A stretch of DNA of 64,000 nt, from NCBI GenBank assembly GCA_938092135.1, contig CALLJL010000017.1, positions 62,259 through 126,258 of the forward strand, given 5' to 3'. Source of the stretch: an uncultured bacterium. Lineage in GTDB: Bacteria; Acidobacteriota; Aminicenantia; Aminicenantales; CALLJL01. Positions within the stretch are counted from its first letter, which is position 1. Each line of letters begins with the position of its first letter. The translations under genes and the position numbers were made by a program. Of the stretch, positions 6,978 through 64,000 are shown piece by piece. The notes below the pieces were generated by a model. The model saw nothing but the letters and a program-made list of their open reading frames with translations, ran no database searches and had not been told where the DNA came from.

Positions 6978-7002
6978 ATTTCTACTTCCTCTTCAGGCAC
7001 AT

Positions 7003-7296: not shown

Positions 7297-7343
7297 GTGT
7301 TCATCATCACCTCCTTTCTATTTCCCAAAAATTAATTAGCATT

Positions 7344-7571
7344 TTATCTTTCTTCCAATTCTTCTAAATATTCCTCAATCTTTTTGTCCACATCTTCAAG
7401 TTCCTTTTCAATTAACTTAATTTCTTCCCACTCTCTCTCCACATCAATTTCTTCCCTTTCCTCCTCTGGAAATACATAAAGAGTTACATTAAGGTTGTAA
7501 TCGTTTTCTCTTATCTTTTCAGCGTCAACAATTTTGGAGAAGCCCTCTATTTCTTTAAATTCGTGATACAC
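7344..7571 (-). pseudogene. hsdM: C-terminal tail of HsdM, in frame with the upstream hsdM ORF across a TAG codon
   Basis: Translates YHEFKEIEGFSKIVDAEKIRENDYNLNVTLYV, the conserved HsdM C-terminus (ENDYNLNxxRYV). Exactly 66 nt (22 sense codons) separate it from the TAG at 7638-7640. Confidence 0.7.
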
Positions 7572-7637
7572 CTTTGAAATCTTATTTATGTGTTCATCTG
7601 CGAGCCTATTTAATTTTCTAACTTCTGGATGTTGCTC

Positions 7638-10422: not shown

Positions 10423-10529
10423 CCTTAATTTATTAATTTAAAAATTAGCTAAAAAATGTAAACAAGGCTAAATTCTTAATGAAAACTAAAATGGGTTTAT
10501 CCCCGTAAAAATAAAAGAAAGGAGATTAA

Positions 10530-13290: not shown

Positions 13291-14159
13291 CGAATAACCT
13301 CAACGGCCTTGATCTTGCGAATTATGAAATAGCCGGCCAAAAAACAAAAAAGGCCTAGGGTAAGTAATGACCAAAACCAGGGAATTGGTTGCACCGGCTT
13401 AACTCTAAAGGCAAAAGAGGCTACCTGTTGTAGATTAAATTTAATCGAAAGGAGAGAAAGGAAAGGTCGGCGAAACCAGTTATAGAGAAAAGCATAGAGA
13501 AAATCGGAAAAAAAATAAACGGCAAAAACGATTACCGATACATATCTGGAATTGCGGCTAAGGCAGGAAAGAAAAAGGGTATAGAGGCAGAAGAATAAAG
13601 TTAAAAAAAGACTATAGCCTATGATTGATAGGGGAAGCCAGGGATAACTTCTAAGAAGGCTGAAATTGCCGGCAAAAAGCATCTTGATTAAAATAAAAAT
13701 AATTGCCGGAAAAATGGTCAATGTGAGAACAAAAAAAGCGACGACCGCTGCTTTTCCCACGAGATAATCCTTCTTTTTTAAAGGACGGCTAAAATAAAGA
13801 GGCAGAGCATTAAAACGAAAATCATCGGCTATTAAGCCGGCACCAGCAAAGACCATTATGAGGATTAACATAAAGAGGAGAAAATCGCTGGCGAGATAAC
13901 TTTTAAAAAAATTGGGATTAACCTCAAACAAAACCAGTCGGCCACCTCGCGTCATAAACTTAAAATCTTCAATTCTTTCTGAAATATATATAGCCACAAT
14001 AAAGAAAAAGGCAGGTAAAAAGGAAAGAGCAAAGACAGGTCGAAAATATTTTCGGCGGAATGCCAGTTTAAGATTAAGCCTAGTTATAGGCCACCAGGGC
14101 CAACGCCTTTCAATGAACTGACCATTCCAATGACTATATCCATGTTCTCTTATCATCAA
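13287..14159 (-). CDS. ABC transporter permease (membrane protein)
   Basis: Multi-transmembrane, translationally coupled to the genes on either side. Confidence 0.5.
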   Translation of the reverse strand: MMIREHGYSHWNGQFIERRWPWWPITRLNLKLAFRRKYFRPVFALSFLPAFFFIVAIYISERIEDFKFMTRGGRLVLFEVNPNFFKSYLASDFLLFMLILIMVFAGAGLIADDFRFNALPLYFSRPLKKKDYLVGKAAVVAFFVLTLTIFPAIIFILIKMLFAGNFSLLRSYPWLPLSIIGYSLFLTLFFCLYTLFLSCLSRNSRYVSVIVFAVYFFSDFLYAFLYNWFRRPFLSLLSIKFNLQQVASFAFRVKPVQPIPWFWSLLTLGLFCFLAGYFIIRKIKAVEVIR

Positions 14160-28259: not shown

Positions 28260-30104
28260 CTAAAGAACCTCAAGTATCCTGAGAGCCGCATCATATCGGC
28301 CTAAGGGAGGCGAAATCTGGATGCCTTGAACCATATCCTTGATCTTCTCAACAATTTCTTGGGCAATTGCGATCCCCTCCTCTCGGGCTCTTTCGGGACC
28401 GATTGCTTGGGCTCGGCGCATACGCTCCATAATTTCCTCAGGAACTCTAGCCCCTGGAACCTCATTATGCATGAATTCAGCATTGCGCAGGCTGGCTAAA
28501 GGCCATACTCCCGCAATAATCGGCAGATGATACCTTTCAACTCGGTTTAAAAAATCTTCTAAGAGTTTGACGTCAAAAACAGGTTGAGTAATGGCAAATT
28601 CGGCGCCCGCCTCCACCTTCCAATGAAAGCGGGACATTTCATAATCGATGTTTACAGCTCCAGGATTAACGCCCACACCAATAAGAAAGCTTGTTGGCGA
28701 GGGTAAACGACGTCGGCCAATGTCAAGACCTTTATTAAGAAAACTGACCAGGTTGGTTAAACCAATTGAATCAATATCAAAAACAGCCGTGGCATCGGGG
28801 TAATCACCTAGCTTAGGGGGATCTCCAGTAATTAGCAGAAGGTTTCGGATTCCATGGGCATGAATCCCGAGAAGGTCGGATTGAATACCCAGGAGGTTTC
28901 GATCGCGACAAGTATAATGAAGAATGACTTCAATACCAGCTTTAGCCTGAAGAAGAAAAGCCAAAGCCATGGAGCTCATTCGGGCACTCGCCCGAGGACC
29001 ATCGGGGATATTAACGCAATCCACGCCTTTTTCCTTCAACTTTCTTGCCACTTCAATAGCCTCGGAGGGATCACAACCTCTGGGAGGCACGACTTCAATA
29101 CTTACCACGAATTTTCCTTCGCTAAGTTTCTTTCCTAAAGCCGATTTCTCAGCCATAGGCTTTGGTTTTAGCTCCTTAGCCTCTTCAATTTCCTCCTGAA
29201 TTAAAATAATTTGGGGCTTGGCGGGCTGAAGAGATCGGATAGCTCCTCTTATCGCTCGAATATGGGCAGGAGTTGTGCCACAGCAGCCGCCAACAATACG
29301 CACTCCGTTAAGGATAAAACGGCGGGAATATTCAGCCAAATAATCGGGTGAACAGAGATAAATATTTCTTCCTTCAATATTTCTCGGCACTCCCGCATTG
29401 GGCATAGCAGAAAGTGGCTTTGAAGTTACCTTAACCATTCTTTCAATGCATTGAAGCATCGCGGCCGGACCAACTGAACAATTCACCCCAATGACATGGG
29501 CCCCCCATTCCTCAAGTTTTCGAGTAAATACCTCAGGAGTGGTCCCATAGAGACTGTTTCCGTCCTCCTCAATGGTCATCTGGGCCACAATTAACTTATC
29601 AGGGGCCTCTTTCTTCACAGCTTTTATCGCCTGATGAATTTCATTGATATCCGAAAAGGTTTCTAAAATGAAAAGGTCAACCCCGCCAGAAAGAAGAGCG
29701 GCCACCTGTTCCCTAAAGGCTTCTTCAACTTCTTCAACCGAAGTAGGACCCCAAGGCTCTATTTTTACGCCAAGGGGACCGATTGACCCGGCGACCCAGA
29801 CTCTCTTCCCAGCTTCTTCCCTGGCAATGGCTGCTCCAGCCTGATTAATTTCCTTGACTTTATCCTCAAGTCCATATTTTTTTAATTTAAATCGATTGGC
29901 CCCGAAGGTATTGGTTTCAATTATTTCAGCTCCAGCCTCAATGTATTCCCGATGAATTGATCGAACCAAATCAGGATTCGTTAAATTTACTTCATCAAAA
30001 CATAAATTAAGATAAATTCCCTTATTATATAACATCGTGCCCATAGCCCCATCGGCCAGTAAAACCCTTTCCTGAAGCAGGCCCAACCACTCTTCAATTT
30101 TCAT
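28260..30104 (-). CDS. yitJ: Bifunctional homocysteine S-methyltransferase / 5,10-methylenetetrahydrofolate reductase (YitJ-like)
   Basis: An N-terminal homocysteine-binding domain with the zinc-ligand motif VGGCCGTTPAHI, fused to a C-terminal MetF (MTHFR) domain. Confidence 0.8.
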   Translation of the reverse strand: MKIEEWLGLLQERVLLADGAMGTMLYNKGIYLNLCFDEVNLTNPDLVRSIHREYIEAGAEIIETNTFGANRFKLKKYGLEDKVKEINQAGAAIAREEAGKRVWVAGSIGPLGVKIEPWGPTSVEEVEEAFREQVAALLSGGVDLFILETFSDINEIHQAIKAVKKEAPDKLIVAQMTIEEDGNSLYGTTPEVFTRKLEEWGAHVIGVNCSVGPAAMLQCIERMVKVTSKPLSAMPNAGVPRNIEGRNIYLCSPDYLAEYSRRFILNGVRIVGGCCGTTPAHIRAIRGAIRSLQPAKPQIILIQEEIEEAKELKPKPMAEKSALGKKLSEGKFVVSIEVVPPRGCDPSEAIEVARKLKEKGVDCVNIPDGPRASARMSSMALAFLLQAKAGIEVILHYTCRDRNLLGIQSDLLGIHAHGIRNLLLITGDPPKLGDYPDATAVFDIDSIGLTNLVSFLNKGLDIGRRRLPSPTSFLIGVGVNPGAVNIDYEMSRFHWKVEAGAEFAITQPVFDVKLLEDFLNRVERYHLPIIAGVWPLASLRNAEFMHNEVPGARVPEEIMERMRRAQAIGPERAREEGIAIAQEIVEKIKDMVQGIQISPPLGRYDAALRILEVL

Positions 30105-51293: not shown

Positions 51294-52190
51294 ATGTCTA
51301 GTAGACCGAAAGTTGTTATCATCAGAGCAAGAGGGCTTTTTTCTGAATTTCGGCCTGATCCAAAACGCCTTCAGGCCATGATAATTAAAGGTCTCACTTT
51401 GCTTACCTCTGAAAACGAGATTAAGCAGGCTATAGAAAAAATTTTTTCGCCTTCTGATCGAATTGGAATTAAAATCAACACAATTGCTGGACCTAGGTTG
51501 TCCACTCTGCCTGAGCTAGCTTTGGCTTTAGTCTCAGTTCTTACCGCGGGGGGAATACTCCAAAGAAACATGATTATTTGGGATAGAACCAATCGTGAAC
51601 TCAGAGATGCTGGTTATCCCATTCAAACAGCCCGAGACAAGCTCAAAATCTTTGGCACTGATAATCCTGGAGCCGGTTACGAGCAAGAGCCCTATTCTTT
51701 CCGCAATATAGGCAGCCTTTTTTCTACTATCCTAACCAATTTTGTTACCGCTTCAATCAGTCTGGCCATCCTTAAAGATCATGGCTTAGCAGGAATTACA
51801 GCAGGAATGAAGAATTATTTTGGTGCTGTCCATAATCCAAATAAATATCATGACAACCACTGTGATCCCTTCGTGGCCGAGCTTTTGGCTTGCCCGCCAA
51901 TTAAATCTAGACACCGACTAACTATTCTCGATGCTCTCGTCGTCCAATTCCATAAAGGCCCATCATTTCATCCCCGCTGGGCTGCTCAATATGAAGGGCT
52001 TATTTTTGGCCTCGACCCTGTAGCCACCGATACTGTAGGCTGGAGCATTATCGAAAAATTAAGATCAGAAAAGGGATTACCCAGTTTAAAAGAAGAAGGA
52101 CGGTCGCCCAACTATTTAGAAACAGCCCGTGTCCTTGGTTTAGGAGAAAATGATTTAACAAAAATTCAAATTATTGAAGAAGAAGTGTAA
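51294..52190 (+). CDS. DUF362-like domain protein
   Basis: The pattern KVVIIRA....GIKINT is DUF362-like. The assignment is tentative. Confidence 0.45.
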   Translation: MSSRPKVVIIRARGLFSEFRPDPKRLQAMIIKGLTLLTSENEIKQAIEKIFSPSDRIGIKINTIAGPRLSTLPELALALVSVLTAGGILQRNMIIWDRTNRELRDAGYPIQTARDKLKIFGTDNPGAGYEQEPYSFRNIGSLFSTILTNFVTASISLAILKDHGLAGITAGMKNYFGAVHNPNKYHDNHCDPFVAELLACPPIKSRHRLTILDALVVQFHKGPSFHPRWAAQYEGLIFGLDPVATDTVGWSIIEKLRSEKGLPSLKEEGRSPNYLETARVLGLGENDLTKIQIIEEEV

Positions 52191-52202
52191 AATAAAAATA
52201 GA

Positions 52203-53324
52203 ATGAAAAGAAGAGATTTTCTTAAGTTAAGTTGTGGATTGTGTTTATCCCTCCGCCCTGGGAAACTTTGCAGCGAAAGTCTTTTCCCTTTAAATCTTAA
52301 ACAACCCAATTTGTCAAAGGTCGAAGCCCGTTATTATGAAAAGCTCCCCGATCGTGAAATTAAATGTACCCTTTGTCCTCGTTATTGCCATTTGGGAGAT
52401 AAAGAAAGAGGATATTGTGGGGTCAGAGAAAACGATGGCGGAATCTACTATACGCTGGTTTATGGCAAGGTTTGCGCTGTTAATGTTGACCCTATTGAAA
52501 AAAAACCCTTTTTTCATTTTCTGCCCGGCACCCTGGCCTTTTCTCTGGCTACAGCTGGCTGTAATGTCAATTGCAAATTCTGCCAGAACTGGCAGATTTC
52601 CCAGGTCAGACCCGAACAGGTTGAGGCTTTTGATTTGCCACCAGAAGCTGTGGCCTTAGCCGCTCAAAGAAACAATTGCCTTTCGGTGGCTTACACTTAT
52701 ACTGAACCTGTTATCTTTTTTGAGTATATGGTCGACAGTTCTATCGCCTCAAGGAAACGGGGCTTAAAAAATGTGGTTGTTACAGGAGGACATATCAACC
52801 CTGAACCCCTTGAGGATCTTATTAAAGTTGTGGATGCCATTAAGGTTGATCTCAAATCCTTTTCCGAAGCTTTCTATAAAGAATATGTGCGGGGGGAATT
52901 GAAGCCAGTTCTGGAAGCTATAAAATTAATTCATCAGAGAAAAATGTGGCAAGAAATTGTTTATCTAGTAATTCCAACGCTTAATGACCAAGAAACGATG
53001 ATCCGTCAAATGTGCCGGTGGCTACTCAAGGAGGTCGGTCCAGACGTTCCCCTTCATTTTTCTCGCTTCCATCCCATGTATCTCCTTAAAAACCTCCCTC
53101 CAACGCCTATTTCTACCCTAGAAAAGCTTTACTCAATCGCCAAGCAAGAGGGTCTGCGTTATGTTTACATAGGCAATGTGCCCGGCCATAAGGCCGAAAG
53201 TACCTATTGTCCATTCTGCGGTCAGTTGCTTATTGAAAGGGTAGGCTATCAGATTGAGAGGATTGAATTGCGGGATGGGAAATGTCGCTATTGTCACGCT
53301 CCCATTCCAGGAATTTGGACTTGA
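52203..53324 (+). CDS. Radical SAM enzyme of the AmmeMemoRadiSam family (PflA-like)
   Basis: CTLCPRYCHLGDKERGYCGVREN followed by CNVNCKFCQNW (CxxxCxxC). The annotated N-terminus carries an RRDFLK extension. Confidence 0.7.
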   Translation: MKRRDFLKLSCGLCLSLRPGKLCSESLFPLNLKQPNLSKVEARYYEKLPDREIKCTLCPRYCHLGDKERGYCGVRENDGGIYYTLVYGKVCAVNVDPIEKKPFFHFLPGTLAFSLATAGCNVNCKFCQNWQISQVRPEQVEAFDLPPEAVALAAQRNNCLSVAYTYTEPVIFFEYMVDSSIASRKRGLKNVVVTGGHINPEPLEDLIKVVDAIKVDLKSFSEAFYKEYVRGELKPVLEAIKLIHQRKMWQEIVYLVIPTLNDQETMIRQMCRWLLKEVGPDVPLHFSRFHPMYLLKNLPPTPISTLEKLYSIAKQEGLRYVYIGNVPGHKAESTYCPFCGQLLIERVGYQIERIELRDGKCRYCHAPIPGIWT

Positions 53325-53332
53325 GCCAGATT

Positions 53333-55465
53333 ATGTTTCCTTTCCTTCTTGGTTTTCTTTCCATTTCTATGCAAATTTTTCTTCTTCGGGAATTTCTCGT
53401 TCAGTTCTATGGCAATGAAATCATTTATGGCTTTGTCCTTGGCTTTTGGCTGCTCTGGGGTTCTTTAGGAAGTTTGCTAGCATCAAAATTCAGTCTTCAA
53501 AAAAAGCACCTTCCTCTTTTATTTGAGATCGCAATTTTCTCAAGCCTGGTGGTCTTTTCTGGCCTTCGTTTCATTCGATTTCTTTGGGGAAAGCCGTTTG
53601 GAGAAAGCCTAGGGATAAGTTCATCCTTTTTTACTGCCCTTATCTGTTGCTTTTTACTCAGTTTTCCCTTCGGTCTGCTTTTTTTTCTCAACGTTGCTTA
53701 TCTAAAGGGAGATCTTACCAAGGTTTATCTTCTTGAATCCCTTGGAGCCTGTCTAGCTGGCCTTATCGTCGATCTTGGACTTATTCCCTTCTTTACCTGC
53801 TGGCAGTCGATCGCCCTTCTGGGAATTTTCTCTCTTTTATTATTATTATTATTTTCTCCCAATAAAATTAATTTGGTTGCTTCAGCCTTAATTTCTATTG
53901 CTCTTTTCCTATTTATTATCTTTGATTTTCAGACTCAGAAAATAGCCACCAAACCCCTTCCCCTAATAAAAAGCCATGACAGCCCCTTTGGTCGTTGGCA
54001 AGTAGTTAAAATTGATGAGCAAATTACTCTTTATCAGGACGGGCTAGCAGCGGCCTCTATCCCTGACCCCGCCGAAGCTGAAGAAATCACCCATTTTGCC
54101 CTTCTTCAGAGACCGGAAGCTAAAAAAATACTTCTAATTGGGGGGGGCTTCAGTGGGGCCATCGAAGAAATTTTAAAGTATCCTCAGACTTCCCTGGACT
54201 ACGTTGAAATCGATCCTGACATTATTCCTCTTCTGAAAAGTCTTTTGCCCTCTGAAAAAAAATCTTTTTTTGATTCGCCAAGATTGACAATTCATCATTT
54301 AGATGGCCGAGCCTTTCTTCAAAAAACAAAAGAAATCTTTGATGTCGTCATTGTGGCCATTCCAGAGCCAGCCACCGCTCAGCTTAATCGATTTTACACT
54401 CGCGAATTCTATTCTTTAATTAAAGATCGACTTTCCAATGATGGGGTTGTCTCGATAAGGGTTTCTTCAGCCGAGAATTACCAAAGCCTGAGTCTGACTC
54501 TTTATTTAAATAATATCTATGCCACTTTGTCTTCTGTTTTCTCTAATATTGAAATAATCCCAGGGGACACCAATATTTTCTTGGCTTCCGATGGTCAGCT
54601 GTCCATTAATCCCGATTTTCTCGTTACCAATCTCAAAAAATATCAGATAGAAACCCGATTTATCCGAGCCCAGACTTTAGCCGCTAGATTGAGTCCTCTT
54701 AGAGTCGAAAGACTAAAATCGAAAGTTTCCTCTCTTTCTTCCTCCATTAATAGCGATTTGCAACCGAAAGGATTTTTTTATTTTCTAATTCATTGGGCCT
54801 CTCAGTTCGGCCTAAACGAAGCTAGAATTCTGGAATTTTTCGCCAAGATTCCTCAGATTTTTCTAATTTTTTTACCTCTTCTTCTTTGTCTAACTATTTT
54901 TTTCTTCCTCTTCATTGTCAGGGGAAAGGCCGCCTTGCCAGGATTGCCCTTAATTGTTCTTGGCTTTACAAGCCTGATGGCCGAGGTTTTAATTCTTCTC
55001 TGGTTTCAGATAAGATTTGGCTATATTTATGAAAAAATAGCTCTCCTCATTGCCTTTTTTATGTTTGGCCTCTTTGCCGGCGCTTTCTTTAGCCAGAAAT
55101 TTACTTCCCCTAAAGGCCAAAGTCTTTTGGCCGATCAGACCCTGATCTTAGTAATTCTCATTTTCCTCCTTATTCTCTTACCCGTCAAAATAAGCAGCTT
55201 TATTCCCTATTTCTTTCTTTTTCTTCTCGGAGTAGCCGGGGGGCATCTTTTTGTAGTTAGCAACCTGCCTTTGATAAAAGGGGGACAGAGTTATGGTTTA
55301 GGTTATGGTCTTGACCTCGCCGGTTCATTTCTGGGAGCTATTCTGGGATCTCCTCTGTTCTTCCCCATTCTTGGCCTACCGAAATCAATTCTTAGCCTTC
55401 TTATTCTTAACTTAAGCTGCCTTTTTCTTCTTCTCTTCTATCGACCAGGTTTCAACCACAAATAA
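53333..55465 (+). CDS. Polytopic membrane protein fused to a spermidine-synthase-like (SpeE-fold) domain
   Basis: The central ILLIGGGFSGAIEE...VEIDPDII...FDVVIVAIPEP forms an aminopropyltransferase fold, flanked by many transmembrane helices. Confidence 0.65.
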   Translation: MFPFLLGFLSISMQIFLLREFLVQFYGNEIIYGFVLGFWLLWGSLGSLLASKFSLQKKHLPLLFEIAIFSSLVVFSGLRFIRFLWGKPFGESLGISSSFFTALICCFLLSFPFGLLFFLNVAYLKGDLTKVYLLESLGACLAGLIVDLGLIPFFTCWQSIALLGIFSLLLLLLFSPNKINLVASALISIALFLFIIFDFQTQKIATKPLPLIKSHDSPFGRWQVVKIDEQITLYQDGLAAASIPDPAEAEEITHFALLQRPEAKKILLIGGGFSGAIEEILKYPQTSLDYVEIDPDIIPLLKSLLPSEKKSFFDSPRLTIHHLDGRAFLQKTKEIFDVVIVAIPEPATAQLNRFYTREFYSLIKDRLSNDGVVSIRVSSAENYQSLSLTLYLNNIYATLSSVFSNIEIIPGDTNIFLASDGQLSINPDFLVTNLKKYQIETRFIRAQTLAARLSPLRVERLKSKVSSLSSSINSDLQPKGFFYFLIHWASQFGLNEARILEFFAKIPQIFLIFLPLLLCLTIFFFLFIVRGKAALPGLPLIVLGFTSLMAEVLILLWFQIRFGYIYEKIALLIAFFMFGLFAGAFFSQKFTSPKGQSLLADQTLILVILIFLLILLPVKISSFIPYFFLFLLGVAGGHLFVVSNLPLIKGGQSYGLGYGLDLAGSFLGAILGSPLFFPILGLPKSILSLLILNLSCLFLLLFYRPGFNHK

Positions 55466-55486: not shown

Positions 55487-55516
55487 TTGACACAAAAATT
55501 ATTTTGTGCTTAATTG
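55487..55516 (+). promoter_or_regulatory. Putative sigma70-type promoter of the hdr-kor operon (TTGACA, 18-nt spacer, TAATTG)
   Basis: TTGACA at 55487-55492 with an AT-rich -10 region, about 75 nt upstream of hdrC. Confidence 0.3.
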
Positions 55517-55590
55517 TATTCTCATTTTGGCTTTAAGGTAGAGAGTATCCCCTTGATAAAAATAGAGCCCGCCAGGAAAGGAAAAAACCA

Positions 55591-55998
55591 ATGAAAGTTA
55601 ATATTTCCCAGAAAAAAATACGTGATTCCTTTGTTCAAAAGGTTCAGGAGTTAAGTGGCCAGAATCTTCTGGTCTGTTATCAATGTGGCAAATGCTCGGC
55701 TGGCTGCCCGGCCGTGTCTGAGATGGATATTTTACCTAATCAAGTGATTCGCTTTGCCCAGCTGGGTTTAAAGGAGGAACTCCTTAATTGCCGGGCCATC
55801 TGGGCCTGTGCCTCCTGTTTGACCTGCAATGTCCGTTGTCCCAAGGGAATTAAAATAGCCGAGGTTATGGAGGCTATAAGACAGATCCTCCTGCGTCAAA
55901 GGCTGGATCACGTTGATATTAATAAGATTCCCCCTGAGAAAAGGAAAGAATTTCCGGCTATTGCATTGATCAGTAATTTTAGAAAATTTACCTCGTGA
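55591..55998 (+). CDS. hdrC: Heterodisulfide reductase subunit C
   Basis: Two CxxCxxCxxxCP motifs (CYQCGKCSAGCP, CASCLTCNVRCP). Confidence 0.8.
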   Translation: MKVNISQKKIRDSFVQKVQELSGQNLLVCYQCGKCSAGCPAVSEMDILPNQVIRFAQLGLKEELLNCRAIWACASCLTCNVRCPKGIKIAEVMEAIRQILLRQRLDHVDINKIPPEKRKEFPAIALISNFRKFTS

Positions 55999-56058
55999 AT
56001 CTAAATATGAACAAAAATAAATTAATTATAAATTTTCAGTTTCAAAGGAATAATAATA

Positions 56059-56937
56059 ATGAAAATAGCCTATTACCCAGGCTGTACGCTTAAAGCCCAT
56101 GGAAAAAATTTTGAAGAATCGGCTCTCTGCACCTTAAAAGAACTAGGATTTGAAGTCATTGAACTGCCTCGCTGGAATTGCTGTGGTACCGTTTTCTCCC
56201 TTACCGCTGATGATGTTATCCATCACGTGGCTCCTCTTCGGAATTTAATTCGCGCTAAGGACGCGGGTTTTAATTCAGTCGTTACGCTTTGCGCAATGTG
56301 CTATAATACTTTAAAGCGCTCCAAGGCCCGCTACGAGGAAAATCCTGACATCCGAGACAAGATCAATCGGTTTATGGATGAAGAAAAAATTAATTTCAAC
56401 GGATCCTTTAAAATACTTCACTACCTGGAGCTTATTCGAGATGAAGTAAAATTAGAAAACCTAGCCTTTAAGATCGTCAAGCCTTTAAAGGGGCTTAAAG
56501 TCGCCAGCTATTATGGCTGCCTCCTGGTGAGGCCTAGAGAAATAGGCTTTGACGACATGGAGAACCCCACCATTATGGACAAGCTGGTGGATACCCTTCA
56601 GGCTGACTCAGTTGATTTTCCCTATAAAACAGAATGCTGCGGGGCTTATCAGACTGTTGACAAACCTCAGGTGGTTATCCTCAGAGCTGCCCAAATTCTG
56701 AAGTCAGCTCGGGAAAGAGGAGCCGAGATTGTGGAGGTAAGCTGTCCTCTTTGCTTTTTTAACCTTGATTACCGCCAGAAAGAAATTCAGCAGATAGAAG
56801 CTGACTTCAAACCGATTCCTGTTCTCTATTTCACCCAGCTGATAGCCATAGCTCTGGGATGTCCGGAGAATAGCCTCAGGTTCGATCTCCATGAGGTCGA
56901 TCCCAGGCCAATCTTGAAACAAAAAGGTCTCATCTGA
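56059..56937 (+). CDS. hdrB: Heterodisulfide reductase subunit B
   Basis: Two CCG domains (WNCCGTVF, ECCGAYQ). Confidence 0.85.
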   Translation: MKIAYYPGCTLKAHGKNFEESALCTLKELGFEVIELPRWNCCGTVFSLTADDVIHHVAPLRNLIRAKDAGFNSVVTLCAMCYNTLKRSKARYEENPDIRDKINRFMDEEKINFNGSFKILHYLELIRDEVKLENLAFKIVKPLKGLKVASYYGCLLVRPREIGFDDMENPTIMDKLVDTLQADSVDFPYKTECCGAYQTVDKPQVVILRAAQILKSARERGAEIVEVSCPLCFFNLDYRQKEIQQIEADFKPIPVLYFTQLIAIALGCPENSLRFDLHEVDPRPILKQKGLI

Positions 56938-56944
56938 GGGAACC

Positions 56945-57223
56945 ATGATCTATTTTGGTGAATTAAAACCAAAAAAAGGATTAATTCATATCAATAAAGA
57001 TCGCTGCAAGGGATGTGGTTTTTGCGTCGAATACTGTCCGCGAGATGTGCTCGAAATGTCAGAAGAATTTAATATCAAAGGCTATCATCCCCCTCGAGTT
57101 GTTAACCCTGATAATTGCTGTTACTGCCAGCTTTGTGAAGCCATCTGCCCAGAATTTGCCATTTTTGTAACTCTCAAAGAGGAGGAAGAACGTGAGCGTG
57201 AGAAAGAAATCAGCCGACCCTAA
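56945..57223 (+). CDS. korD: 2-oxoacid:ferredoxin oxidoreductase delta subunit (2x[4Fe-4S] ferredoxin)
   Basis: CKGCGFCVEYCP and CCYCQLCEAICP. Confidence 0.75.
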   Translation: MIYFGELKPKKGLIHINKDRCKGCGFCVEYCPRDVLEMSEEFNIKGYHPPRVVNPDNCCYCQLCEAICPEFAIFVTLKEEEEREREKEISRP

Positions 57224-58364
57224 GGGCGTCCTCACTGGAGTCCATTATCTTGATGGCGATTATGCCATTGCGGAAGGGGCTCTGGCGGCAGGATGCCGAT
57301 TTTTTGCAGGCTATCCCATAACCCCATCAACTGAAACAGCGGAAAGGTTTGCTGAACGCATCCCTTTAGTGGGAGGTGTCTTCATTCAAATGGAGGATGA
57401 AATTGCCTCGATTGCAGCTTTAATCGGGGCATCCTGGGCGGGCGTGAAATCAATGACTGTGACTTCAGGCCCTGGCTTTTCTCTTATGATGGAAAACATA
57501 GGCTTGGCCTGCATGATGGAAGTCCCAATCGTCATTGCCAATGTTCAGCGGGGAGGCCCTTCCACAGGCTTACCAACTTTAACCGGTCAGGGAGATATGA
57601 TGCAGGTTAAATGGGGTTCCCATGGCGACTATGAAATAATTGCCCTTTCACCAGATTCACCCCAGGAATGCTTTGACTTAACTATAAAGGCCTTTAATCT
57701 ATCGGAAATGTATCGAGTTCCTGTCTTTATTATGACTGATGAATGTGTCGGTCATATGCATGAAAAAGTGGTCATTCCTCCAGCCGAAGAAATTGAAATC
57801 ATCGAAAGAAAGTGGTATGAAGGACCAAAAGATAAATATCTTCCCTATCAGCCCGACGTTGATTTAGTTCCTTTCATGGTTAAAGCCGGAGATGGTTATC
57901 GTTTCCATACAACGGGATTAACCCATGACCAAAGAGGTTATCCAGTTATTAATGCTGAGGCTCAGGATTGGTGCGTCCGTCATATCTGCGACAAAATTCG
58001 CCTTAATGCTGATAAAATAATTGAATATAAGGAAGACGAAACTGATAATGCTGAAATTGTTGTCGTTTCCTATGGAATCACTTCCCGGGTAGCCTGGAAG
58101 GCTATTCAGGATGCCAGGAAAGCAGGAATCAAGGTTGGTTCTTTAAGATTGATCACTGTCTGGCCTTTTCCTGAAAAAAGAATTGAAGAATTGGCAGGGA
58201 AAATTAAAGCCTTCGTTGTGCCTGAAATTAATCTTGGTCAGATAAAAAGGGAAGTTGAAAGAGCTGCTAAAGGCAAAGCTCCCGTCTATCCAGTTTCCCA
58301 CTGCGGTGGCTGGGTTCATAACCCTGATGATATTTTAAAAGTAATCAAGGAGGCGGCAAAATGA
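57192..58364 (+). CDS. korA: 2-oxoacid:ferredoxin oxidoreductase alpha subunit
   Basis: N-terminal EGALAAGCRFFAGYPITPSTE, typical of the POR/KOR alpha subunit. GTG start overlapping the korD 3' end. Confidence 0.85.
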   Translation: MSVRKKSADPKGVLTGVHYLDGDYAIAEGALAAGCRFFAGYPITPSTETAERFAERIPLVGGVFIQMEDEIASIAALIGASWAGVKSMTVTSGPGFSLMMENIGLACMMEVPIVIANVQRGGPSTGLPTLTGQGDMMQVKWGSHGDYEIIALSPDSPQECFDLTIKAFNLSEMYRVPVFIMTDECVGHMHEKVVIPPAEEIEIIERKWYEGPKDKYLPYQPDVDLVPFMVKAGDGYRFHTTGLTHDQRGYPVINAEAQDWCVRHICDKIRLNADKIIEYKEDETDNAEIVVVSYGITSRVAWKAIQDARKAGIKVGSLRLITVWPFPEKRIEELAGKIKAFVVPEINLGQIKREVERAAKGKAPVYPVSHCGGWVHNPDDILKVIKEAAK

Positions 58365-59230
58365 GGCCTGAGGATCGTCTCGAAAAAAAGCATCCCATGG
58401 AAGAATTTCTGCGAATGGATAGAATGCCCCATATATGGTGTTCCGGCTGCGGAATTGGTATTGTGGTAACTTCATTTATAGAGGCCTTGCAAAAAAGTGA
58501 AATTAATCCCGACAAGGTTTGCGTTGTTTCGGGCATTGGTTGCACCGGTCGAGTAGCTGGCTATTTAAGACTTGATTCCTTTCACACAACTCATGGTCGA
58601 CCAATACCTTTTGCTACCGGTTTAAAGTTAGCCAACCCTGACCTAAAGGTTGTGGTTTTCAGTGGTGATGGAGATATTGTTGGGATTGGTGGTAACCACT
58701 TTATTCATGCTGCCCGCCGCAATATGGATTTAGTTGTCATTTGTGTCAATAATTTTAATTATGCAATGACTGGCGGTCAGGTGGCTGCTACCTCGCCCAT
58801 AGGTGCCAACCTTTCAACAGCTCCCTACGGTAACTTTGAATACCCCTTTAATCTTCCCTATCTTGCTGAAGCTTGTGGAGCTACTTATGTCGCCCGCTGG
58901 ACCTGCCTCCATATTAGACGATTGACCAAGAGTATTCAGGAAGCCCTCCAGAAAAGGGGTTTTTCCTTTATTGAGGTAATAACACCTTGTGTTACTCTTT
59001 ATGCCCGTCGTAATCGATTGGGCGATGGTCTTAATCTCCTTAGGTACTATTATGAAAATTCAGAAATCAGGCACGGAGCTGACACTCGCACTCTGGACAT
59101 TGGCTATCAAGGGAAAATAATAGTAGGTAAGTTTGTGGATATTGAAAAACCAACATTCCTCGATTGTATGAATAATCATTTGCGCAAGGTTCTTGGCAAT
59201 AAATACCAACCTTGGGGAGTTAAATCATGA
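58361..59230 (+). CDS. korB: 2-oxoacid:ferredoxin oxidoreductase beta subunit (TPP-binding)
   Basis: CSGCGIG and the TPP motif SGDGD...N. Confidence 0.85.
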   Translation: MRPEDRLEKKHPMEEFLRMDRMPHIWCSGCGIGIVVTSFIEALQKSEINPDKVCVVSGIGCTGRVAGYLRLDSFHTTHGRPIPFATGLKLANPDLKVVVFSGDGDIVGIGGNHFIHAARRNMDLVVICVNNFNYAMTGGQVAATSPIGANLSTAPYGNFEYPFNLPYLAEACGATYVARWTCLHIRRLTKSIQEALQKRGFSFIEVITPCVTLYARRNRLGDGLNLLRYYYENSEIRHGADTRTLDIGYQGKIIVGKFVDIEKPTFLDCMNNHLRKVLGNKYQPWGVKS

Positions 59231-59847
59231 ATGAAATTCGGTTCTCTGGATTCGGTGGTCAAGGAATAATTCGCCAAGGGCTAATCCTTGGTAAAGCCTT
59301 ATCCCTTTATGACAATAAATTTGCGACCATGACCCAAAGCTTTGGTCCAGAGGCTAGGGGAAGTGCCTGCAGTTCTCAAGTCGTTGTTTCGGACGAGAGA
59401 GTGCTCTATCCCTATGTAACCAAGCCAGAAATTCTTGTCGCTATGTCCCAGGAGGCCTATGAAAAATATGAACCTGAGCTAAGAGAAGGAGGTACTCTCA
59501 TTATTGATTCAGATCTGGTTCGGCTTAAGCCTTCTAAAAGAAAAATAAAAATTTATAGCATTCCCTCAACTCGCTTTGCTGAAGAAATTGGAAACCGAAT
59601 TTATGCCAACCTTGTTATGCTCGGCTTTTTTGCCGCTGTTACTAAAATTGTCTCCCCTGAAGCCATCAAAAAGGCTTTACCTGGACTGGTTCCATCCCGT
59701 TATCTTGATATGAACATTAAAGCATTCGATAGGGGCTTTAATTATGGCCTTGAAGTTTTAGAAAAGGAAGCTCAATCTAAGGTGGAAAAAGAACCTAAAG
59801 CTGAAAAAAAGACAGCTAAAGCCAAAAATGAGGGGATGGAAAAATGA
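59227..59847 (+). CDS. korC: 2-oxoacid:ferredoxin oxidoreductase gamma subunit
   Basis: GFGGQG motif. Confidence 0.8.
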   Translation: MNEIRFSGFGGQGIIRQGLILGKALSLYDNKFATMTQSFGPEARGSACSSQVVVSDERVLYPYVTKPEILVAMSQEAYEKYEPELREGGTLIIDSDLVRLKPSKRKIKIYSIPSTRFAEEIGNRIYANLVMLGFFAAVTKIVSPEAIKKALPGLVPSRYLDMNIKAFDRGFNYGLEVLEKEAQSKVEKEPKAEKKTAKAKNEGMEK

Positions 59848-61796
59848 AGCGGACCGGCGTCTTTGTCTGTCATTGCGGAATAAATATTGCCGGCACGGTT
59901 GATGTAAAAAAAGTAGCCGCTGAATTGGCCAAGCACCCCGGAGTAGTTCATGCTGAAGACTATGTTTATATGTGCTCTGACCCCGGCCAGAACTTGATCA
60001 TTCAGGCTATAAAAGAGAAAAAACTGGACTCAGTGGTCGTGGCTTGCTGCTCCCCGACCCTTCATGAAACCACTTTTCGGAATGCAACTAAAAAAGCTGG
60101 TTTAAATCCCTATCGATGTGAAATAGCCAATATTCGAGAGCAATGTAGCTGGGTCCATCGGGAAAAAAGCAAAGCCACACAAAAAGCTATCAGCATAACT
60201 CGTGGTGTGGTCGAAAAAGTTAGAAGGAATGAATCTCTTGAAGATGTCAGCGTTCCGGTAACTAAGAGGGCCTTGGTAATCGGCGGAGGTATTGCCGGTA
60301 TTCAGGCTTCCTTAGACATCGCCGATGCTGGCTATGAAGTTATCCTGGTTGAAAAATCGCCTTCCATCGGCGGTCATATGAGCCAACTTTCGGAAACCTT
60401 CCCTACCCTTGACTGTTCCCAATGCATTCTAACCCCGAAAATGGTGGAAGTCTCAAAACATCCCCGAATCAAATTAATGACTTACAGTGAAGTTCAAGAA
60501 GTTTCTGGTTATGTTGGCAATTTCAAGGTTAAAATTCTAAAAAAGCCCACCTATGTGGATCCCGATAAATGCACTCTTTGCGACGAATGTACCAAGGTTT
60601 GCCCCATTGTTGTTCCTAATGAATTTGATATGGGCCTAACAGGAAGAAGGGCTATTTATATTCCCTTCCCTCAGGCTATTCCTGCCTCTTACACCATTGA
60701 TGAAAAAGCCTGTCCAGGGATGTTTGATACAGCTATTGCCTGTGGCAAATGTGCCGATGTCTGTAAGCCTGGGGCCATTAACTTTGATATGAAGCCAGAG
60801 ATTGTTGAGGTTGATGTGGGGGCTATCGTTGTGGCCACAGGCTATGACCTTTACGATAAATCAATGATGGCTGAATATGGTTACGGCCAATACCCCGATG
60901 TGCTCGATGGGCTCCAGTTCGAACGTCTGCTTTCGGCATCCGGTCCCACCGGAGGCAGAATTCTGAGGCCTTCCGATAAGAAAGAACCAAAAGAAGTGGT
61001 TTTTATTCAGTGTGTAGGTTCCCGTGATCCTGAACTCCATTGGCCTTATTGCTCAAAAATCTGCTGCATGTACACGGCCAAACACGCTATGCTTTACAAA
61101 CATCATGTTCACGATGGCCAGGCCTATGTTTTTTATATAGATATCCGCTCAGGGGGCAAAAACTATGAGGAATTTGTTCACCGAGCGGTCGAAGAGGACG
61201 GAGTTCTCTACCTTCGGGGAAAGGTATCCCGAGTCTTTGAAGACAATGGAAAACTCATCGTCTGGGGGGTAGATACGCTTACGGGTAAACAAATCGAAAT
61301 TGCTGCCGATATGGTTGTTCTCGCCATGGCCATTCGACCTTCCAAAGGAATGGATGAACTAGCCAAGAAGCTCAAAATTGCCCTTGATAAGGATGGCTTT
61401 TTAGCCGAAGCCCATCCCAAGTTAAGGCCCGTCGAAAGTATGACCTCAGGAATATTTTTGGCCGGTGCAGCTCAGGCTCCCAAGGATATACCTGAGGCAG
61501 TTGGTCAGGCTTCCGGGGCAGCGGCCAAAGCTATGGCCATTTTATCCAGGGACAGGCTTTTCCATTCCCCCACTGTGGCCCGGGTAATTCGCAATCTATG
61601 CACAGGCTGTGGTATGTGTGTTAGCGTTTGTCCCTTTGAAGCTATTTCCTTAAAAGAAGGCAAAGCTGAGGTTAATGAAATCCTCTGTGAAGGATGCGGA
61701 ACCTGCTCGGCCTCCTGTCTGCGTAATGCCATCCAGGTTAAGAATCTTACTCCTCATCATATCCAAGAAATGATTAAAGCTTGTCTTGGAGGCTAA
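59844..61796 (+). CDS. hdrA: Heterodisulfide reductase subunit A (FAD and Fe-S clusters)
   Basis: FAD motif VIGGGIAGIQASLDIADAGYEVILVEK and four ferredoxin-like CxxCxxCxxxC(P) motifs. Confidence 0.9.
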   Translation: MKRTGVFVCHCGINIAGTVDVKKVAAELAKHPGVVHAEDYVYMCSDPGQNLIIQAIKEKKLDSVVVACCSPTLHETTFRNATKKAGLNPYRCEIANIREQCSWVHREKSKATQKAISITRGVVEKVRRNESLEDVSVPVTKRALVIGGGIAGIQASLDIADAGYEVILVEKSPSIGGHMSQLSETFPTLDCSQCILTPKMVEVSKHPRIKLMTYSEVQEVSGYVGNFKVKILKKPTYVDPDKCTLCDECTKVCPIVVPNEFDMGLTGRRAIYIPFPQAIPASYTIDEKACPGMFDTAIACGKCADVCKPGAINFDMKPEIVEVDVGAIVVATGYDLYDKSMMAEYGYGQYPDVLDGLQFERLLSASGPTGGRILRPSDKKEPKEVVFIQCVGSRDPELHWPYCSKICCMYTAKHAMLYKHHVHDGQAYVFYIDIRSGGKNYEEFVHRAVEEDGVLYLRGKVSRVFEDNGKLIVWGVDTLTGKQIEIAADMVVLAMAIRPSKGMDELAKKLKIALDKDGFLAEAHPKLRPVESMTSGIFLAGAAQAPKDIPEAVGQASGAAAKAMAILSRDRLFHSPTVARVIRNLCTGCGMCVSVCPFEAISLKEGKAEVNEILCEGCGTCSASCLRNAIQVKNLTPHHIQEMIKACLGG

Positions 61797-61798
61797 AA

Positions 61799-62221
61799 AT
61801 GGCCGCCGAATTTGAACCCAGAATAGTTGCTTTTCTGTGTAAATGGTGCTCTTCAGCTGGTGCTGATTTGGCTGGAGTAAGCCGAATGGAATATCCCCCC
61901 AATGTTATCCCTATTCAGGTCATGTGTTCTGGCAGTGTCTCTCCCCTTTATGTTTTTTCAGCCCTGAGCCATGGAGCTGATGGCGTCTTGGTTTCCGGAT
62001 GTCACCCCGGTGATTGTCATTACATAAAAGGAAACTATTATGCCCGTCGCCGTTTAGCTTTGGTTAAAAAACTTCTGGAATATATTGGTTTAGAACCCCA
62101 GAGATTTCAGATGTCCTGGGTCTCAGCGACGGAAGGAGTTAAATTTAGCCAGTTAATATATGATTTGGTTAAAGAACTTAAACCTCTTGGACCTCAAACT
62201 AAATTCAGGAGAAATTACTAA
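61799..62221 (+). CDS. mvhD: MvhD/FlxD-like [2Fe-2S] protein
   Basis: FLCKWCSSAGADLAG...MCSG...GCHPGDCHY. ATG at 61799 with a GGAGG RBS. Confidence 0.85.
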   Translation: MAAEFEPRIVAFLCKWCSSAGADLAGVSRMEYPPNVIPIQVMCSGSVSPLYVFSALSHGADGVLVSGCHPGDCHYIKGNYYARRRLALVKKLLEYIGLEPQRFQMSWVSATEGVKFSQLIYDLVKELKPLGPQTKFRRNY

Positions 62222-63252
62222 TGGTCAGCCTCGATCAATTAAAAGAAGAGGTAAAGAAGGCGCTCAGTTCGGGAAAAGTAAAATATTTTATCGGCTATGA
62301 AAATATTGGTTCTGGCTGGCAGGTTCGACCAGCCTTTATTCGCCAGCCCGAGGATGTTGATCGTTTGGTGTGGACGCCGGCTTGCTTCCACAATCTTGTT
62401 CGTTTTCTTCATGACGAGAAGAGACGCCGGGCTCGAGAGAAAAATCCTGACATCCGGCCCGTGGGTTTAGTCGTCAAAGGATGCGATTCAAGATCTATCA
62501 ATGTTCTCCTTCAGGAAAAATACATTGAAAGAAACGATGTTTATATTATCGGAGTTTCCTGTGAATTAACCGGCGTGATCAATATCACCAAGCTCAATCA
62601 ACATCTTAATGGTCTCAAACCTCAGAAAGTTCTTTTCGGATCAAAGGGAACATTTAAGGTTATCGTTGATGACAGAGAAATAGAAATTGAAGCTCCGGAC
62701 ATTTTAGCTGATCGCTGTCTTGAATGCCCGGCTAATTTTCCGGTGATCGCTGATGTTATTTTAGGTGAAGAAATTAAGAGAAATCCTGGCAATCGCTACC
62801 AATCAATATCAGCTTATGAAAAAATGGCCCTTGACGAAAGATGGTCCTTCTGGCAGCAACAATTTAGCCGATGTTTGCGCTGCTATGCTTGCCGTTCTGT
62901 TTGCCCGATGTGTTATTGTGATGAATGCGTTGCCGATAGCATCGCCTATGCGGTCACGGCCGAGACCACTGCTGACGAAAAAGCCCAAAAAACAAGATGG
63001 GTCGAAAGAAATCCTGAGCTTTCTGAAAATATTTTTTATCATCTTGTAAGGGCTATTCATTTAGCCGGGCGATGCGTCGATTGTGGTGAATGCGAACGAG
63101 TTTGTCCAGTCGAAATTCCCCTCCGCTTATTAAATAAAAAAATGGAAAAGGAGGCCAAAGAGCTCTTTGGCTATGAGGTTGGTTTTGATCCTGCCCAACC
63201 TCCTCTAATTGCCTGTTTTCGCGATAATGATCCTCAAGATTTTATCAGGTGA
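62221..63252 (+). CDS. Fe-S oxidoreductase, FlxC/FrhB/HydB-like
   Basis: VKGCDSRS plus C-terminal CxxCxxCxxxCP-type clusters (CLRCYACRSVCP, CVDCGECERVCP). Confidence 0.55.
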   Translation: MVSLDQLKEEVKKALSSGKVKYFIGYENIGSGWQVRPAFIRQPEDVDRLVWTPACFHNLVRFLHDEKRRRAREKNPDIRPVGLVVKGCDSRSINVLLQEKYIERNDVYIIGVSCELTGVINITKLNQHLNGLKPQKVLFGSKGTFKVIVDDREIEIEAPDILADRCLECPANFPVIADVILGEEIKRNPGNRYQSISAYEKMALDERWSFWQQQFSRCLRCYACRSVCPMCYCDECVADSIAYAVTAETTADEKAQKTRWVERNPELSENIFYHLVRAIHLAGRCVDCGECERVCPVEIPLRLLNKKMEKEAKELFGYEVGFDPAQPPLIACFRDNDPQDFIR

Positions 63253-63255
63253 AAA

Positions 63256-64000
63256 ATGATGGAGAAAACAATCCTCAAATCATCCTTTCCTCAATGGATT
63301 AAATCCCTCCAATCATTTAAGGTTTTTATTCCCAAAAGAGAAAATTTTGGCTGGGAACTGAGCTCGAACAATCAAATTCTAGAAATTGCATCTGATTATA
63401 CTTATCCTGTAGTTCCACCTAAAAAATTAATTTTTCCCCAGGAAGAAATCTTTTTCGAATTTGAACAAAATCCCGATAATGGAATAGAGCTCAAAGAAGT
63501 TTTACCTGAAGAATCGCCTCAGGTAATTTTTGGCGTCAGACCCTGTGACGGTCGAGCAGTTGAGGCTATGGACCTCGTTTTCGGTGGCTCCTTTGAAGAT
63601 CTTTATTATTGGCGAAGACGCCGCCAGACCACTCTCGTTGGCCTCGCCTGCCATCAGCCGCCTTCTGAAAACTGTTTCTGTCTTTCTGTTGAAGGAAGTC
63701 CCTATTCAGAAGATGGTTTGGACATTCTTTTAACCGATCTTGGTGACCGCTATTTCGTTAAAGCCTTGACCGAAAAAGGGGAAAAATTGCTGAGCGAGGC
63801 GCCTTCTCTTTTTAAAGAGATTACCCCTAAAGATAGGGAGGAAAAAGAAAGGGTTCATCTTGAAGCCCAGGGTAAAATAAAGCGTCACCTTAATGGGGCT
63901 AGAGAATTGCCTGAAAAGATAAAGGCTATCTTTGATTCCAATTTCTGGGACGAAGAATCATCGAACTGCCTTCGCTGTGGCATCTGCACATATCTCTGCC
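63256..64000 (+). CDS. Fe-S oxidoreductase, FlxB/HydB/AsrA-like, 3' partial (runs off the right edge)
   Basis: ATG at 63256 with an uninterrupted ORF to the window end (translated by hand; not in the supplied ORF track). Has VIFGVRPCDGRA and a downstream CLRCGICTYLC cluster motif. Confidence 0.55.
   Translation, partial: MMEKTILKSSFPQWIKSLQSFKVFIPKRENFGWELSSNNQILEIASDYTYPVVPPKKLIFPQEEIFFEFEQNPDNGIELKEVLPEESPQVIFGVRPCDGRAVEAMDLVFGGSFEDLYYWRRRRQTTLVGLACHQPPSENCFCLSVEGSPYSEDGLDILLTDLGDRYFVKALTEKGEKLLSEAPSLFKEITPKDREEKERVHLEAQGKIKRHLNGARELPEKIKAIFDSNFWDEESSNCLRCGICTYLC

Follow-up and report, generated by a model that had tools for sequence, protein, structure and literature searches.

A candidate NADH-bifurcating Flx-Hdr-KOR-Tfr operon in Aminicenantes and its modular relatives

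Why should a complete 2-oxoacid:ferredoxin oxidoreductase (KOR) be encoded in the middle of a gene cluster for a heterodisulfide reductase (Hdr)-type electron-bifurcating complex? The question is raised by a stretch of 64,000 nt (hereafter the window) from an uncultured Aminicenantales bacterium (CALLJL01; GCA_938092135.1, contig CALLJL010000017.1, positions 62,259-126,258 of the forward strand), in which ten co-directional genes at 55591-64000 on the plus strand follow the order hdrC-hdrB-korD-korA-korB-korC-hdrA-mvhD/flxD-flxC-flxB. It touches on a broader problem: the source of electrons low enough in potential for 2-oxoacid synthases is central to the reductive tricarboxylic acid (rTCA) cycle and to anaerobic anabolism. 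The operon belongs to a kind already known, the Tfr-Hdr-Kor-Flx module originally reported from rTCA gene clusters of Gammaproteobacteria, and the window genes are best explained as the first ten of a putative ~13-kb, 13-gene operon, in which flxA-tfrB-tfrA would follow beyond the window end, the last two encoding a thiol:fumarate reductase (Tfr)-like pair. We propose, with moderate confidence, that this Flx-Hdr-KOR-Tfr operon encodes an NADH-bifurcating complex that would reduce fumarate and carboxylate succinyl-CoA to 2-oxoglutarate.

Gene content and operon structure

Open reading frames (ORFs), Pfam and NCBIfam together identify all ten genes, and the cofactor motifs of every product are intact, bearing out the gene identities and the complete four-subunit KOR of the original prediction; the minus-strand ORFs of the region (66-83 aa) all lie inside plus-strand genes. 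The KOR comprises a delta ferredoxin-like subunit, KorD (56945..57223; 92 aa, two Fer4 domains and two CxxCxxCxxxC motifs), an alpha subunit, KorA (57192..58364; 390 aa, POR_N and PFOR_II), a thiamine pyrophosphate (TPP)- and [4Fe-4S]-binding beta subunit, KorB (58361..59230; 289 aa, TPP_enzyme_C) and a gamma subunit, KorC (59227..59847; 206 aa, POR domain), with TPP and three [4Fe-4S] sites between them. KorA scored 575.6 bits against the NCBIfam 2-oxoacid alpha model PRK08659 (cutoff 411), 406 bits against the alpha subunit of the Pyrococcus furiosus 2-keto acid:ferredoxin oxidoreductase (1YD7), 302 against Helicobacter pylori OorA (8YS5), 226 against the Magnetococcus 2-oxoglutarate:ferredoxin oxidoreductase (OGOR; MmOGOR, 6N2N) and 56 against pyruvate:ferredoxin oxidoreductase (POR); it thus appears to fall with the KOR/OGOR group, far from POR. 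The best NCBIfam matches of KorD and KorB were OGOR_delta (71.6 bits, cutoff 125) and the 2-oxoglutarate ferredoxin oxidoreductase beta subunit (244 bits, under cutoff), and KorC scored 207.9 bits against PRK08537.

On either side of the kor genes lie those for the Hdr subunits. The bifurcating-type flavoprotein HdrA (59844..61796; 650 aa) aligned end to end with HdrA of Methanothermococcus thermolithotrophicus (5ODC_A; residues 3-633 against 5-635, 737 bits) and scored 859 bits against the NCBIfam HdrA2 model. Its N-terminal cluster, FAD domain, inserted ferredoxin domain and C-terminal ferredoxin domain are all present with their Cys motifs, and an exact look-up of the sequence returned no match. 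The HdrB-like protein (56059..56937; 292 aa, two CCG domains) has both CCG motifs complete, C-x31-CC-x35-CxxC and C-x38-CC-x34-CxxC, corresponding to non-cubane [4Fe-4S] sites; it scored 164.5 bits against the NCBIfam HdrB model, 160.6 bits over its full length against SdhE, the CCG subunit of type-E fumarate reductase, and ~136 bits against methanogen HdrB structures. The HdrC-like Fe-S subunit (55591..55998; 135 aa, Fer4_8 and Fer4_17) carries [4Fe-4S] motifs of the form CxxCxxCxxxC at residues 29 and 73 and matched QmoC, HdrC and the middle part of TfrB in NCBIfam. The Hdr equivalog scores in NCBIfam all lie under cutoff for the window proteins, and the bacterial host makes the coenzyme M-coenzyme B heterodisulfide (CoM-S-S-CoB) an unlikely substrate of HdrB. 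Downstream of hdrA follow the [2Fe-2S] connector MvhD/FlxD (61799..62221; FlpD, 176 bits), an FlxC-like Fe-S protein (62221..63252; 343 aa, FrhB_FdhB_C and Fer4, two CxxCxxCxxxC motifs) and an FlxB-like Fe-S protein (63256..64000, cut by the window end; ShyB/HydB/AsrA-like), which complete the FlxABCD component set together with FlxA, seen only in relatives.

The gaps at the nine junctions are, in order, 60, 7, -32, -4, -4, -4, +2, -1 and +3 nt, and eight of the nine overlap or are no longer than 7 nt, which indirectly supports the single-operon reading. A purine-rich, Shine-Dalgarno-like motif precedes each start codon, and the korC/hdrA overlap is an ATGA, by which the kor and hdr genes are translationally coupled. 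For mvhD/flxD, the ATG at 61799 is preferred over the TTG at 61781, since in the closest relatives the gene is called from the corresponding ATG. Position 55487, from which the original prediction had the cluster begin, is no gene start; it holds a perfect TTGACA (-35) ~100 nt 5' of hdrC in a 125-nt AT-rich gap, and so marks a candidate sigma-70-type promoter (55487..55515, plus strand; TTGACA, 17 nt, TTAATT), whose -10 hexamer is weak and which was read off the sequence itself, the consensus scan leaving it unlisted. Inside the operon, promoter-like sites were no commoner than in shuffled sequence, and 16 terminator-like sites were found against 10.1 ± 3.0 in shuffles (about two standard deviations above), none of them convincing; these counts are near the shuffled expectation and bear neither for nor against internal signals. 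The last ~30 residues of KorC (window 59740-59847) form a low-complexity tail rich in Lys and Glu (EKEAQSKVEKEPKAEKKTAKAKNEGMEK), which runs up to the overlapping start of hdrA; at other loci the korC match stops 6-291 nt before the hdrA match starts, and the stretch between may be a similar tail or intergenic sequence.

Conservation and downstream genes in Aminicenantes

Searching species-representative genomes with KorA gave 80 loci, against which all window proteins were then searched by tblastn. The closest loci come from Candidatus Aminicenantes metagenome-assembled genomes (MAGs), with KorA at most 95% identical, and the kor genes lie between hdrB and hdrA in 42 of 42 Aminicenantes species-level loci, two of which are truncated 5'. 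The junctions are identical in three independent assemblies of closest relatives (Logan SRR8369165, HdrB 88%; ENA ERZ27247713 and JGI 3300025546, HdrB 84%), which share the neighbourhood too, from the dihydroorotase, RNase III, DUF362, radical-SAM and SpeE-like genes through the operon. The hdr-kor arrangement is far beyond chance, and its preservation in 42 genomes and three further assemblies excludes mis-assembly, which the original prediction had named as one thing that would refute it.

The flxA-like NAD(P)H-binding gene that had been expected beyond the window is present in the closest relatives (loci L081-L083, L002 and L003), where the operon continues as flxB-flxA-tfrB-tfrA, except that the L081 contig stops just after flxA. 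In these relatives flxB encodes ~346 aa (Fer4_22) and flxA 274-309 aa (NAD_binding_1 and DHODB_Fe-S_bind; HydG/AsrB-like), and they are followed by a 262-aa SdhB/TfrB-N-like Fe-S protein without a CCG domain and a 555-aa FAD_binding_2 flavoprotein whose best NCBIfam match is TfrA (339.6 bits, cutoff 718). Beyond tfrA lie unrelated genes (NUDIX, PilZ, glyS), on the opposite strand in several loci. A reading of the flavoprotein as L-aspartate oxidase (nadB models, 270 bits) was rejected as primary, with TfrA scoring higher at 340 bits and the gene always paired with an SdhB-like Fe-S subunit and HdrCB.

The fused TfrB model of Methanothermobacter is covered by three proteins of the operon, namely HdrC (120-221), HdrB (262-473) and the 262-aa protein (19-185). 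Because these three match parts of TfrB, HdrB resembles SdhE and the TfrB-like protein lacks a CCG domain, HdrCB and TfrBA look like one functional fumarate-reducing unit. The likeness to Methanothermobacter TfrAB is therefore one of domains, with TfrA as best match of the flavoprotein and the TfrB domains all covered, but there TfrB is one fused protein, whereas in Aminicenantes the parts are three genes with scores far under the equivalog cutoffs; bacteria, moreover, are not expected to have CoM and CoB thiols. Aminicenantes TfrBA is thus no member of that enzyme, although it may act as a Tfr-like pair working with separate HdrB and HdrC. Alignment to the E. coli and mycobacterial enzymes places an Asn at the position of the covalent-FAD histidine (E. 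coli FrdA H44), with the equivalents of the catalytic R287 and H355 kept, and the same Asn occupies this position in 39 of 39 TfrA-like proteins of Hdr-linked operons. This indicates that the FAD of the TfrA-like protein is probably non-covalent, as in soluble one-way fumarate reductases; non-covalent FAD marks such one-way enzymes, and covalent FAD is required for efficient succinate oxidation by SdhA/FrdA.

Among the 37 of 42 Aminicenantes loci that extend far enough to tell the downstream type, tfrBA closes the operon in 36. In 25 of the 42, hdrA is followed by mvhD-flxCBA-tfrBA; eight (type II: L016, L022, L024, L025, L037, L038, L040, L042) have mvhD-tfrBA with a divergent mvhD, three (type III: L033, L035, L039) have tfrBA directly after hdrA, and five contigs are too short 3' of hdrA. 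The remaining locus, L030, has neither korC nor tfr, with hdrCB-korDAB running directly into hdrA (8407-13979) and opposite-strand genes beyond. The invariant core is HdrCB, KorDABC, HdrA and TfrBA, and the NADH module is dispensable. A type I locus (L011) and a type II locus (L016) can be sister taxa in the KorA tree, which argues that the Flx module was lost repeatedly. In L024, a second Hdr-type cluster (1-8300) with hdrB-like, hdrA-like, HdrL-like, mvhD and flxC-like genes lies just 5' of the kor operon and could serve as a donor module. Many MAGs titled 'uncultured Eubacteriales bacterium' (L003, L006-L010, L012-L015, L017 and others) fall inside the Aminicenantes clade with KorA 78-93% identical and full synteny, so that the taxonomy of these records is probably wrong.

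The genes 5' of the operon are housekeeping genes (pyrimidine synthesis, RNase III, radical SAM, SpeE-like), and apart from the operon the window carries nothing but housekeeping genes and one type I restriction system. Directly 5' (51294-55465) lie three genes, for a DUF362 protein, for a radical-SAM protein and for a polytopic membrane protein of 727 aa that has a spermidine-synthase-like (SpeE-like) domain at its centre, the third overlapping the second by 43 nt; this conserved trio precedes the operon in most Aminicenantes loci. The restriction-modification system occupies 825-9092 on the minus strand (hsdR 825-3878, hsdS 4707-5975, hsdM 7638-9092), and a 614-aa ORF at 28260-30104, also on the minus strand, fuses a homocysteine S-methyltransferase to a methylenetetrahydrofolate reductase domain. 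Across the whole 64 kb, a tRNA scan found no tRNA genes and there were no Rfam matches at gathering thresholds.

Proposed mechanism and its rivals

In the NADH-bifurcating reading, NADH would be oxidized at FlxA and its electrons would reach the bifurcating FAD of HdrA by way of FlxB, FlxC and FlxD (MvhD). From there the high-potential electron would travel by HdrC and HdrB to the Tfr-like Fe-S and flavoprotein pair, reducing fumarate to succinate, while the low-potential electron would leave through the ferredoxin-like domains of HdrA to KorD and on to the KorB cluster and TPP, where succinyl-CoA and CO2 would be joined by reductive carboxylation to give 2-oxoglutarate. The predicted net reaction is 2 NADH + fumarate + succinyl-CoA + CO2 -> 2 NAD+ + succinate + 2-oxoglutarate + CoA. 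Textbook potentials are -320 mV for NAD, +33 mV for fumarate and ~-500 mV for the 2-oxoglutarate couple; with these, the fumarate branch yields ~68 kJ and the 2-oxoglutarate branch costs ~35 kJ, for a net of about -33 kJ/mol. In the H. pylori enzyme OorDABC, the Fe-S relay leads from TPP, by way of the cluster in the beta subunit, to two outer clusters in the delta subunit (PMC12307629), which makes KorD the natural contact for HdrA. The physical supercomplex, its direction, the KOR substrate, and the transfers from HdrA to KorD and from HdrB to TfrB (direct or via a thiol) are what we infer from sequence.

The original prediction had placed a high-potential disulfide at HdrBC and held that the KOR substrate could not be told. 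A disulfide is probably not the acceptor: with tfrBA closing the operon in the relatives, the high-potential electron likely goes to fumarate. Nor is the substrate wholly open, for in addition to the grouping of KorA, the genomic context of HdrB-clade relatives, in which Tfr, fumarase, malic enzyme and succinyl-CoA synthetase are linked to HdrB, points to succinyl-CoA/2-oxoglutarate; the description of the H. pylori oxidoreductase gives no 2-oxoglutarate-binding residues usable for typing the KOR (PMC12307629). As to direction, the Asn in all TfrA homologues favours the reductive one. Of the two mechanisms that had been put forward, NADH-driven reductive carboxylation at a KOR served directly by the HdrA flavin is the better supported, and confurcation is disfavoured by this Asn and by the standard potentials. 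With only housekeeping and restriction genes around the operon, an anabolic or NADH-sink reductive branch is likelier than a full rTCA cycle.

Several points weigh against an NADH-driven 2-oxoglutarate synthase. Eleven Aminicenantes loci lack flxCBA and three of these also lack mvhD, so NADH cannot serve as donor in every case. These variants encode no mid-potential electron donor, and a minimal HdrABC-KOR-Tfr complex would have no visible mid-potential electron input. The genes flxA, tfrB and tfrA lie outside the window and are taken from relatives with HdrB 84-88% and KorA 96-97% identical. The OGOR-specific NCBIfam models are under cutoff for all KOR subunits and only the generic 2-oxoacid alpha model passes, so that the identity of the KOR substrate rests on context. 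HdrB keeps both CCG sites, and operons that combine KOR, Mvh and Hdr genes (L088, L090) occur without Tfr, implying some other high-potential acceptor at HdrB; a soluble disulfide is a possible substrate. Aminicenantes have been described as fermentative heterotrophs, and the 64-kb window contains no ATP-citrate lyase (ACL) or other TCA genes. Finally, a survey of April 2026 still calls the complex 'suggested' (PMC13147460).

The strongest competitor, which we nevertheless consider unlikely, dispenses with a supercomplex: the operon would co-regulate separate Flx-Hdr, KOR and Tfr enzymes linked by free ferredoxin and a thiol/disulfide carrier (e.g., DsrC-like), with the same net chemistry. Such an indirect route was left open by Mitchell et al. 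2024 (PMC11636981), it would give the two complete disulfide-reducing CCG sites of HdrB and the soluble acceptor needed by the Tfr-less L088 and L090 operons a ready place, and an enzyme with these four KOR subunits is complete and can stand alone, as H. pylori OorDABC does. However, none of the 42 operons includes a ferredoxin or DsrC-like gene, the TfrB-like subunit of 262 aa lacks a CCG domain with which it could oxidize thiols, kor is translationally coupled to hdr, and the hdr-kor linkage persists through permutations of gene order (L085, L088), all of which argue against this reading.

We regard as improbable a confurcating enzyme, in which oxidation of 2-oxoglutarate and of succinate would merge at HdrA to reduce NAD+, which would let an anaerobe oxidize succinate without quinone. 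Bifurcation of the HdrA type can in principle run in reverse, heterotrophic Aminicenantes could oxidize glutamate-derived 2-oxoglutarate, and by our own estimate the reaction may approach equilibrium at physiological metabolite ratios, but the oxidative direction is endergonic by ~33 kJ/mol at standard potentials and the histidine for covalent FAD is replaced in all 39 TfrA-like proteins. Slightly less probable still is a Flx-Hdr-KOR complex of undefined KOR specificity with a disulfide acceptor at HdrBC, the downstream fumarate reductase genes being unrelated passengers. The intact CCG sites, the OGOR-specific models under cutoff, and the Acidobacteriota and Mvh-type relatives that carry KOR-Hdr without Tfr would all suit it; against this, tfrBA is kept in 36 of 37 Aminicenantes operons, including those that have lost flxCBA and mvhD, L084 and L089 have hdrC-hdrB-tfrB-tfrA side by side, and the published gammaproteobacterial cluster also has tfrAB. 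That the interleaving is an assembly artefact or chance adjacency is refuted by the junctions, which are the same in the Logan, ENA and JGI assemblies as in 42 species-level genomes that many projects produced, leaving it a negligible probability.

Known systems and a wider modular family

The placement of KOR between hdrB and hdrA, which the original prediction took to be unprecedented, was published in 2019 for the Escarpia symbiont, in the order frdB/tfrB-frdA/tfrA-hdrC-hdrB-korD-korA-korB-korC-hdrA-flxD-flxC-flxB-flxA-aclB-aclA-idh (Rubin-Blum et al. 2019, PMC6315080). The same study found such rTCA gene clusters conserved in tubeworm symbionts, Thioflavicoccus mobilis and a gammaproteobacterial MAG, and had by then put forward the idea that electrons from NADH are bifurcated directly to OGOR and a fumarate reductase. 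The cluster is co-expressed, intergenic regions included (Mitchell et al. 2024, PMC11636981), and a 2026 survey reported homologous co-location to be absent in the other autotrophs it examined (PMC13147460). By published gene order, the Rubin-Blum module (also in Ca. Endoriftia persephone and T. mobilis) is identical to the Aminicenantes operon from hdrC to flxA and likewise includes a two-subunit Tfr-like reductase, whereas its tfrBA is 5' and that of Aminicenantes 3', and it sits among aclAB, idh, pntAB and rnf, none of which is near the Aminicenantes operon. Its hosts are autotrophic sulfur oxidizers, in contrast to the presumed fermentative heterotrophs of Aminicenantes with their Flx- or MvhD-less variants. 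What the present operon and its relatives add is a new phylum, a presumably heterotrophic setting with no ACL nearby, tfrBA at the other operon end, the Flx-less variants and the wider modular family; our literature search found no description of an Hdr-Kor-Tfr module in Aminicenantes, nor of KOR-Hdr linkage elsewhere.

Parts of the proposed machine are known from other systems. The FlxABCD-HdrABC of Desulfovibrio vulgaris (Ramos et al. 2015, as cited in PMC6315080 and PMC7282089) pairs the same NADH module with HdrABC and has been proposed to bifurcate, but in the cited accounts its order is flxABCD-hdrABC beside an alcohol dehydrogenase, free ferredoxin and DsrC are its presumed acceptors, and neither KOR nor Tfr is mentioned. 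NADH bifurcation to fumarate has likewise been proposed for the 'succinate operon' of Pseudoclostridium thermosuccinogenes (fumarate hydratase, Flx-Hdr and a two-gene fumarate reductase), which has no KOR and for which free ferredoxin is assumed as low-potential acceptor (PMC7282089). H. pylori OorDABC (8YS5) has the same delta-alpha-beta-gamma architecture as the window KOR, but is free-standing and oxidative, with soluble acceptors and no Hdr linkage (PMC12307629). HdrA, HdrB and HdrC of methanogen MvhAGD-HdrABC (5ODC) and of the Fdh-Hdr-Fmd megacomplex (7BKB) are homologous to the window proteins, although the donors there are H2 or formate, the acceptor is CoM-S-S-CoB, and the CO2-fixing partner is formylmethanofuran dehydrogenase, with no 2-oxoacid synthase. 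The 7BKB megacomplex passes low-potential electrons internally to its CO2-fixing enzyme without free ferredoxin, and we propose by analogy that the KOR of the Aminicenantes operon may hold the place of that partner.

More distant loci suggest a modular system. A word-indexed search for HdrB homologues returned Aminicenantes throughout its best 120 matches and did not reach the gammaproteobacterial cluster, and we also surveyed HdrB-clade representatives at 42-50% identity to the window HdrB. On an unrelated metagenome contig of 60% GC, L085 (9543-20876) has the same 13 genes in permuted order at 31-60% identity (hdrC-hdrB-hdrA-mvhD/flxD-flxC-flxB-flxA-korD-korA-korB-korC-tfrB-tfrA), which argues that the linkage is functional and no accident of order. 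L084 (sucCD-fumAB-hdrA::mvhD-hdrC-hdrB-tfrB-tfrA-malic enzyme) and L086 (fumAB-malic enzyme-hdrCB-hdrA ... tfrB) set Hdr and Tfr genes among C4-dicarboxylate enzymes that point to a putative malate-fumarate-succinate-succinyl-CoA-2-oxoglutarate route. In L088 (3776-12843; korDAB-mvhDGA-korC-hdrCB-hdrA, where hydrogenase genes split korC from korDAB) and L090 (1552-10858; korDABC-hdrA-mvhDGA-hdrCB), KOR genes occur without Tfr beside hdrCBA and a group-3c-type [NiFe] hydrogenase (mvhD-mvhG-mvhA), and L089 (4314-13251; hdrA-mvhDGA-hdrCB-tfrBA) is an Mvh-Hdr-TfrBA operon without KOR; all three appear to be H2-driven forms of this modular system.

In the KorA tree the Aminicenantes clade is wholly interleaved and its sister, a WOR-3-like clade, has hdrA on both sides of the kor genes, while in an Acidobacteriota clade korDABC is followed by hdrA-flxDCBA or by a ~975-aa HdrL-like protein, MvhD and HdrD. 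Loci L043 (11890-17422) and L050 (13294-18216), WOR-3-like and Thermoanaerobaculia, show korDABC with a ~975-aa HdrL-like double HdrA, MvhD and an HdrD-like Fer4+CCG fusion, and no Tfr; the L043 cluster is interrupted by genes for a 23S-rRNA-intervening-sequence protein and a Dam-type methyltransferase. On this gene content, KOR and Tfr each recur as partners of HdrA modules that take their electrons from NADH or H2, and either can occur without the other.

We tentatively extend this to a broader proposal, to which we give rather less than even weight, that KOR may plug into the HdrA-type bifurcating complexes of many uncultured bacterial phyla as a general low-potential acceptor, with Flx or Mvh as exchangeable donors and Tfr optional. 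If so, the 13-subunit machine of Aminicenantes would combine fumarate reduction with succinyl-CoA carboxylation without free ferredoxin, as a bacterial counterpart of the methanogen Hdr-Fmd CO2-fixing megacomplex, and the Flx-less and MvhD-less variants would represent a new 2-oxoglutarate:fumarate oxidoreductase, or use another donor. The Hdr-KOR-Tfr idea was previously tied to one gammaproteobacterial lineage; here the module is fixed across a class-level lineage of presumed heterotrophs. The related loci turn what seemed a peculiarity of symbionts into a modular design of wide occurrence and offer many sequence variants for heterologous expression. Should the direct coupling prove true, fumarate reduction would pay for reductive carboxylation inside one complex.

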